NCBI RefSeq assembly: GCF_003334255.1
Contig: NZ_QOWU01000036.1
DNA: 53,120 nt
Direction: 5' to 3' (one strand)
Origin: Escherichia coli
Lineage (GTDB): Bacteria; Pseudomonadota; Gammaproteobacteria; Enterobacterales; Enterobacteriaceae
Position 1 is the first letter of the stretch, and every line of letters starts with the position of its first letter. Below the pieces are notes generated by a model. The model was not told where the DNA came from. It searched no databases and saw only the letters and a list, made by a program, of their open reading frames with translations. Made by a program: the position numbers and the translations under genes. Shown here piece by piece: positions 1 to 328 of this stretch.

Positions 1-77
1 AATCGGTGGAGCTGCATGACAAAGTCATCGGGCATTATCTGAACATAAAACACTATCAATAAGTTGGAGTCATTACC
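1..77 (+). mobile_element. IS1 terminal segment (InsB-proximal end with terminal inverted repeat); partial, element body lies left of the window
   Basis: Bases 1-77 end in AAGTTGGAGTCATTACC, which I recognise as the last ~77 nt of IS1; exact reverse complement of 53044-53120. Confidence 0.85.
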
Positions 78-328
78 GCCCATGCAGATGGGTATTCTTC
101 TCCTGGAGATGGGCCTGGTAGTGCATTATTACAGAAAACATTCATAAAATATTCACTGCTTTGCCAGATTTTATCACCTTTTTTACCATCGCTGGGGATA
201 GAGATTCTTGGTACGTAACCAATGACAACGGTATTTCCACCTTCATGTTCAGCATAGCAGTCCATTGCCCATGCAGGTAATGAACTAAAACCCATAAAAA
301 AAGTAATAACAATTAACAAGTAGCGCAT
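78..328 (-). pseudogene. yqiI: yqiI fimbrial adhesin gene, N-terminal fragment truncated by IS1
   Basis: ORF 56..328 begins MRYLLIVITFFMGFSSLPAWA (signal peptide) directly after the yqiH stop; reading frame runs into IS1 terminus at nt 77 and stops after 6 IS1-encoded codons (VMTPTY); full-length YqiI is ~350 aa. Confidence 0.8.

Follow-up and report, generated by a model that had tools for sequence, protein, structure and literature searches.

What has become of yqiI, the last gene of the ygiL-yqiGHI chaperone-usher fimbrial operon, in an Escherichia coli contig that holds only its first 251 nt? The stretch analyzed here is contig NZ_QOWU01000036.1 (RefSeq assembly GCF_003334255.1; 53,120 nt, hereafter the window), where an open reading frame (ORF) of 90 amino acid residues lies at the left end. 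We conclude that, with high probability, an IS1 element entered yqiI by simple transposition and left a 90-aa adhesin stub that cannot be assembled. The preliminary description of this DNA had read the ORF as a chimera of 84 YqiI codons and the tail VMTPTY-stop, and this was confirmed: yqiI nt 1-251 are identical to the K-12 gene, and the tail comes from IS1. The placement of the ORF at 56..328 and its length also hold, with the correction that it lies on the minus strand. The features at this junction are as follows.

1..77, plus strand: IS1 right-end fragment that holds the 23-bp right inverted repeat (55..77) and the last insB codons with the stop codon TAA (60..62); IS1 runs off the left end of the window.
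56..328, minus strand: chimeric 90-aa ORF, 84 YqiI residues followed by VMTPTY-stop, the tail running antisense through the IS1 right inverted repeat.
78..328, minus strand: yqiI 5' fragment, nt 1-251, encoding residues 1-21 (signal peptide) and 22-84 (part of the predicted N-terminal receptor-binding domain).
78..86, no strand assigned: one copy of the 9-bp IS1 target, GCCCATGCA on the plus strand, corresponding to TGCATGGGC (yqiI nt 243-251) when read in the direction of the gene.

As the reference we used yqiI of K-12 MG1655 (positions 2187-3251, minus strand, of the K-12 stretch compared), which encodes a protein of 354 aa. Nucleotides 1-251 of this gene matched window positions 328..78 at 251/251 (blastn E=7.6e-133), and the 84 N-terminal residues of the ORF are identical to those of full-length K-12 YqiI. 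The native yqiI start is intact, 1 nt after the yqiH stop codon. The sequence departs from K-12 in the third base of codon 84 (nt 252), where the first G of IS1 turns GCA into GCG and Ala is kept. IS1 sits between yqiI nt 251 and 252, and its transposase genes are convergent with yqiI. The remaining 814 nt of yqiI (nt 252-1065) were not found anywhere in the window. Databases list the chimeric protein under CUK06972.1, 'Uncharacterised protein [Escherichia coli]'.

Members of the IS1 family are 768 bp long, have 23-bp terminal inverted repeats and generate a 9-bp (occasionally 8-bp) target duplication. Sequence comparison showed no difference between window positions 1..77 and the final 77 nt of IS1, and DNA matching this end is annotated as IS1 family transposase in RefSeq records. 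A 54-nt IS1 right-end pattern was found at 24..77 (minus) and 53044..53097 (plus), both with 0 mismatches, where 0 matches were expected in shuffles. The second match belongs to a further element end.

53044..53120, minus strand: second IS1 right-end fragment, 77 nt, exactly reverse-complementary to window 1..77, at the opposite end of the contig.

This second end begins 84 nt past the gss stop codon; for this right-hand junction, the best 30 of 173 records were inspected. The IS1 content of the window is exactly 77 nt of the right end on each side, mutually inverted. The earlier statement that a 'left IS1' truncates yqiI is correct in that an IS1 right end lies at this point, but the window contains no complete IS1, only these 77 nt. 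The window appears to be one entire short-read contig, broken off within a repeat on either side, and the 77-nt length of its IS1 ends suggests an assembly with k=77.

Contig ends of exactly 77 nt of a multicopy repeat, as at both ends of the window, are typical of de Bruijn graphs, and an assembler could have wrongly extended the contig into the repeat while yqiI is really intact. However, the identical junction occurs in two independent data sets: CYUC01000033.1 (53,128 bp; GCA_001299315.1), which carries 81 nt of IS1, and a Logan contig of SRR10357257. The window and CYUC01000033.1 were identical over the 10.3 kb compared (0 mismatches); relative to that contig, the window is trimmed by 4 nt at the left and presumably by 4 nt at the other end (8-nt difference). 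The Logan contig showed 0 mismatches over 4.3 kb. In addition, the complementary junction exists, and its precise 9-bp duplication would not arise from a graph artefact. We therefore consider an artefact extremely unlikely.

The complementary (mate) junction was predicted beforehand as the IS1 left end, followed by TGCATGGGC and by yqiI from nt 252 onwards. The predicted ORF in the yqiI frame opens at a TTG inside the IS1 end, begins with MAASPAWANIMMLLASG... and encodes 278 aa. This protein was found exactly, as WP_249537291.1 'fimbrial protein' on contig LYBB01000448.1; LYBB00000000 is strain ECOR09 (PMC13293308). The contig starts with agtaagttggcagcatcacc (20 nt of the IS1 left end), followed by tgcatgggc (the 9-bp duplication) and aaatataatg (the rest of yqiI). 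Beyond the yqiI remainder, the usual gene order of glgS, yqiJ, yqiK and hldE follows. The 3' part of yqiI is thus found beyond the IS1, directly behind its left end and with a perfect 9-bp duplication, in the ECOR09 draft, an assembly other than that of the window. The mate junction with its duplication therefore indicates a simple IS1 transposition, with the 3' part of yqiI retained behind the element.

Two points weigh against this reading. The two yqiI junctions come from different assemblies, and the window ends 77 nt into IS1; an exact look-up of the 89-aa partial chimera, which was aimed at placing both junctions in the ECOR09 assembly, gave no match. Furthermore, the other end of the contig is a second, inverted IS1, and a later 53-kb inversion would leave all four junctions unchanged. 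An IS1-mediated rearrangement could accordingly have deleted the DNA beyond yqiI nt 251 or inverted the 53-kb segment, and the gene would be dead either way. The two inverted IS1 right ends that bound the contig point in this direction. Recombination within such copies would keep every junction between the element and its flanks and would be invisible to short-read contigs, and no contig spanning the IS1 was found: the chimeric protein is present on 5-6 draft contigs, all of which end in IS1. In contrast, a deletion would give no mate junction, whereas an exact one with the 9-bp duplication exists, followed by glgS-yqiJ-yqiK. An inversion would be secondary, on top of the insertion, and the window is colinear with K-12 throughout. 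Rearrangement as the cause of the truncation is in our view improbable, although the two inverted IS1 copies may make the 53-kb yqiI-gss segment invertible.

Colinearity with K-12 MG1655 extends from yqiI to at least hybD, the end of the K-12 stretch compared, and beyond hybD, on to gss, by gene content. The two sequences are 99.98% identical (8 mismatches and 1 gap in 45 kb), and the sole structural difference is that the window has no IS2 between ygiL and yqiG. Based on this identity and colinearity, the source is therefore a K-12-like E. coli. The same comparison bears on whether the 84-codon fragment could be the remnant of a duplicate or paralogue, with a complete yqiI elsewhere, so that the fimbria keeps its adhesin. 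Only the 53-kb contig of this genome was at hand, and yqiI homologues, present in 3,354/5,426 complete E. coli genomes, match up to 3 places in a few of them. However, the median copy number in complete genomes is 1, and the fragment, identical to yqiI over its whole length, lies at the native position behind yqiH in full K-12 synteny. We find a paralogue very hard to credit.

The transposition into yqiI that we favor also resembles known cases of insertional inactivation by IS1. IS1 prefers AT-rich targets, and the operon, with a G+C content of 30-45% (also given as 38-45%) compared to ~50% in the flanks, fits this preference. Shared with such cases are the identical terminus, the 9-bp duplication at the mate junction, the AT-rich target and an inverted repeat that supplies the stop codon. 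Nothing is different in kind; only 77 nt of the element lie in the window.

Homology and modelling show YqiI as a predicted two-domain subunit of adhesin type, with a signal peptide (residues 1-21), a receptor-binding domain (22-218) and a pilin domain (~220-354). The signal peptide MRYLLIVITFFMGFSSLPAWA, as read from the sequence, is basic at its start and hydrophobic in its core, with the cleavage motif A-W-A. The 'Fimbrial protein' PDB 9rwe_A, 197 residues solved as a stand-alone domain, aligned to YqiI 22-218 (E=3.6e-122, ~91% identity), and its beginning at residue 22 fits cleavage of the signal peptide after AWA. Three further, more distant sequences of solved stand-alone domains (9rwu/9rwv, 9rx0 and 9rww) aligned to the same residues 22-218. 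A literature search on 9rwe, 9rwu, 9rx0 and 9rww found no relevant paper. The binding domain forms a small family of its own, with 85 cluster representatives at E<=0.001.

The support for the pilin domain comes from Pfam matches of homologues and from fold comparison, because the C-terminal domain alone, used as query against PDB sequences, gave no match. The Pfam family Fimbrial was detected at E<=0.001 in 12/30 full-length or long YqiI homologues. The AlphaFold model of YqiI, based on the homologue alignment, had a mean predicted local distance difference test score (pLDDT) of 87 and a predicted template modelling score (pTM) of 0.77, with most of the binding domain confident. Its best full-length fold matches in the PDB were the two-domain tip adhesins LpfD, CupB6, PapG and CsuE, and the C-terminal domain matched FimA, PapA, FimG, PapE and the PapG pilin domain with template modelling (TM) scores of 0.6-0.7. 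In the C-terminal sequence ...GPFSKDVILKITYN, Gly occupies position -14 and Tyr position -2, as read directly. This Gly(-14)/Tyr(-2) motif is known in pilus subunits bound by PapD-like chaperones. Two results weigh against the assigned architecture: the match of Fimbrial (PF00419) to YqiI 228-354 (E=0.0024) was below threshold, and the whole-protein TM scores to known adhesins were low (0.25-0.31), as would be expected if the domain orientations differ. In NCBIfam, no model matched YqiI.

FimH, PapG, LpfD, CupB6 and CsuE share with YqiI the N-terminal binding domain, the C-terminal pilin domain and the position of their gene as the last in the operon, but have no detectable sequence similarity to it. 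The putative function of YqiI as a tip adhesin rests on its architecture, its fold and its relative in extraintestinal pathogenic E. coli (ExPEC). In some database records, YqiI or a fragment of it is called 'methylglyoxal detoxification protein', which is odd beside the architecture of a two-domain fimbrial adhesin. This name goes back to a susceptibility screen (PMID 17846588; PMC5270733).

In the ExPEC relative, disruption of the yqi adhesin gene, the last in the cluster, resulted in less adhesion and less lung colonization, and the cloned yqi cluster makes fimbriae (PMC2771359). The Yqi fimbriae of CFT073 bind terminal beta-N-acetylglucosamine (beta-GlcNAc) and fucosylated glycans (PMC8545135). 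Wurpel et al. 2013 distinguished a 'Yqi' type, which belongs to phylogroup B2, from a 'Yqi-like' type in phylogroups A, B1, D and E (PMC3559732). The Yqi fimbria, also called ExPEC adhesin I (EA/I), of the avian pathogenic strain IMT5155 and the uropathogenic strain CFT073 has the same gene order as the operon described here, subunit-usher-chaperone-adhesin, with the adhesin last. The N-terminal domain in 9rwe is ~91% identical to residues 22-218 of the YqiI of the window allele. In contrast, the window allele is K-12-like and of the 'Yqi-like' type, whereas the adhesion data belong to the ExPEC relative.

The stub retains the signal peptide and 63 residues of the predicted binding domain, whereas the whole pilin domain is lost. 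In the AlphaFold model, the break at residue 84 falls after strand 6 of ~12 in the binding domain. The adhesin had been called inactivated, and a stub with half of the binding-domain strands and no pilin domain gives strong grounds on which we infer this loss of function. Translation from the native yqiI start would read 84 codons, enter the IS1 right inverted repeat and end after six foreign codons. If the operon is transcribed, the stub would be made and exported, but would probably be unable to fold, to bind YqiH by donor-strand complementation or to reach the YqiG usher. Because the stub has no pilin domain, neither capture by YqiH nor hand-over to YqiG would be expected, and it would probably be degraded in the periplasm.

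Yqi fimbriae, if made, would be devoid of the adhesin and non-adhesive, by analogy with FimH and PapG. Assembly at the usher is normally primed by the adhesin-chaperone complex. Fimbriation itself may also drop because this complex normally starts the assembly. No polar effect on ygiL, yqiG or yqiH is expected because all three precede yqiI in the operon. Operons of this kind are reportedly silenced in K-12 (Korea et al. 2010, cited in PMC8174762), and the AT-rich operon fits this.

The preliminary description had also listed the subunit, usher and chaperone genes as intact, and we came to the same result.

330..1079, minus strand: yqiH, periplasmic fimbrial chaperone, 249 aa, intact; the protein is identical to K-12 YqiH and has full-length NCBIfam fimbrial chaperone matches.
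1095..3608, minus strand: yqiG, outer-membrane usher, intact; one open frame, 837 aa from GTG or 834 aa from ATG at 3599.
3659..4210, minus strand: ygiL, fimbrial (major) subunit, 183 aa, intact; NCBIfam NF007276 matches at 1-183/183 (384 bits, cut-off 189), and the protein is identical to K-12 YgiL.

The Pfam families PapD_N and PapD_C are recorded for an identical yqiH in another assembly. YqiG matched usher models end to end (positions 16-828 of 829 in the StdB model) and, besides the IS2-altered N-terminus of the K-12 usher, differs from it only by V449A. The operon is located between ubiK/ribB and glgS in the order subunit-usher-chaperone-adhesin, with the glgS side seen only in LYBB01000448.1. 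A promoter and terminator scan of positions 1..5200 was set aside, since shuffled sequence yielded at least as many sites.

The window strain and K-12 MG1655 have the operon, its locus and the YgiL and YqiH proteins in common, and in each of the two strains the fimbria is knocked out by one insertion sequence. They differ in the gene that is hit. K-12 has an intact yqiI and an usher N-terminus altered by IS2, whereas the window strain has an intact usher and a yqiI cut by IS1. The IS2 of K-12 (3555..4880 of the K-12 stretch compared) replaces the usher N-terminus, and its counterpart in the window is 3529..3545.

Outside the operon genes, Rfam matches above the gathering score were an FMN (flavin mononucleotide) riboswitch upstream of ribB, the small RNA ES173 and two naRNA4 elements derived from repetitive extragenic palindromic (REP) sequences. 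These matches lie where K-12 has them or where they are expected, at the following positions.

4906..5054, plus strand; 33040..33103, minus strand; 38883..38953, plus strand; and 49923..49999: Rfam matches.

The yqiI::IS1 junction of the window was found in 0/5,426 complete E. coli genomes. Apparent full-coverage hits of the junction in 11 complete genomes were rejected, as all of them consisted of two separate pieces with the IS1 69-400 nt away, at five different spacings. The close relatives K-12 and G6/7 have the empty site and an intact yqiI (WP_001269802.1). Strain G6/7 (NZ_CP060061.1) matches the window at ~100.0% identity over 24 kb and is the closest complete genome over the first 24 kb. 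Its yqiH is annotated as frameshifted (3483..4233 of the G6/7 stretch), which is a third independent lesion in the operon.

IS1 was seen repeatedly in yqiI or yqiH of unrelated isolates (C9, BL12/GS04/BHD6, T2, 2 HS-C and others, HL15/SF10). A separate gene call for a 268-aa C-terminal YqiI fragment, starting at Met87, was present in 233 blocks of the protein collection. This fragment was inspected in ten locus stretches, with the yqiI region around position 5740-6810. Behind this call lay substitution-only alleles whose N-terminal ORF has 82 aa (stop near codon 83), frameshifts of -1, +1 and +8, and an IS1 at nt 182-190; in some of the long-read contigs, indel errors may be the whole cause. 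We also considered a mutational hotspot near codon 84 but rejected it, because any lesion upstream of Met87 yields the 268-aa call, which is a selection effect.

In AP021892.1, a 768-bp IS1 with a 9-bp duplication is located at yqiI nt 182-190, and several duck, goose and cat isolates carry IS1 in yqiH. These cases suggest that IS1 often targets the AT-rich yqiHI region. A further reading would be that selection has recurrently favored loss of the yqi(-like) fimbria in commensal K-12-like E. coli, and that the window allele is adaptive rather than a product of neutral decay. This reading rests on the independent lesions, namely IS1 in yqiI at several sites, IS1 in yqiH, IS2 in K-12, the yqiH frameshift of G6/7 and the premature-stop and frameshift alleles of yqiI. 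We regard it as possible but rather unlikely.

The yqiI::IS1 allele appears to be undescribed in the literature. CUK06972.1 (90 aa) and WP_249537291.1 (278 aa) are the matching IS1-junction halves of one yqiI::IS1 allele, from different assemblies, and both should be annotated as pseudogene. The contig ends of the window are IS1 copies and are resolvable by long reads. The significance of the finding beyond strain annotation is small. The window allele is an ordinary, lineage-specific insertion-sequence knockout in a cryptic chaperone-usher operon, and the lineage would be unable to make adhesive Yqi-type fimbriae. It adds one more case to a known pattern, in which cryptic chaperone-usher operons of E. 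coli are often hit by insertion sequences.
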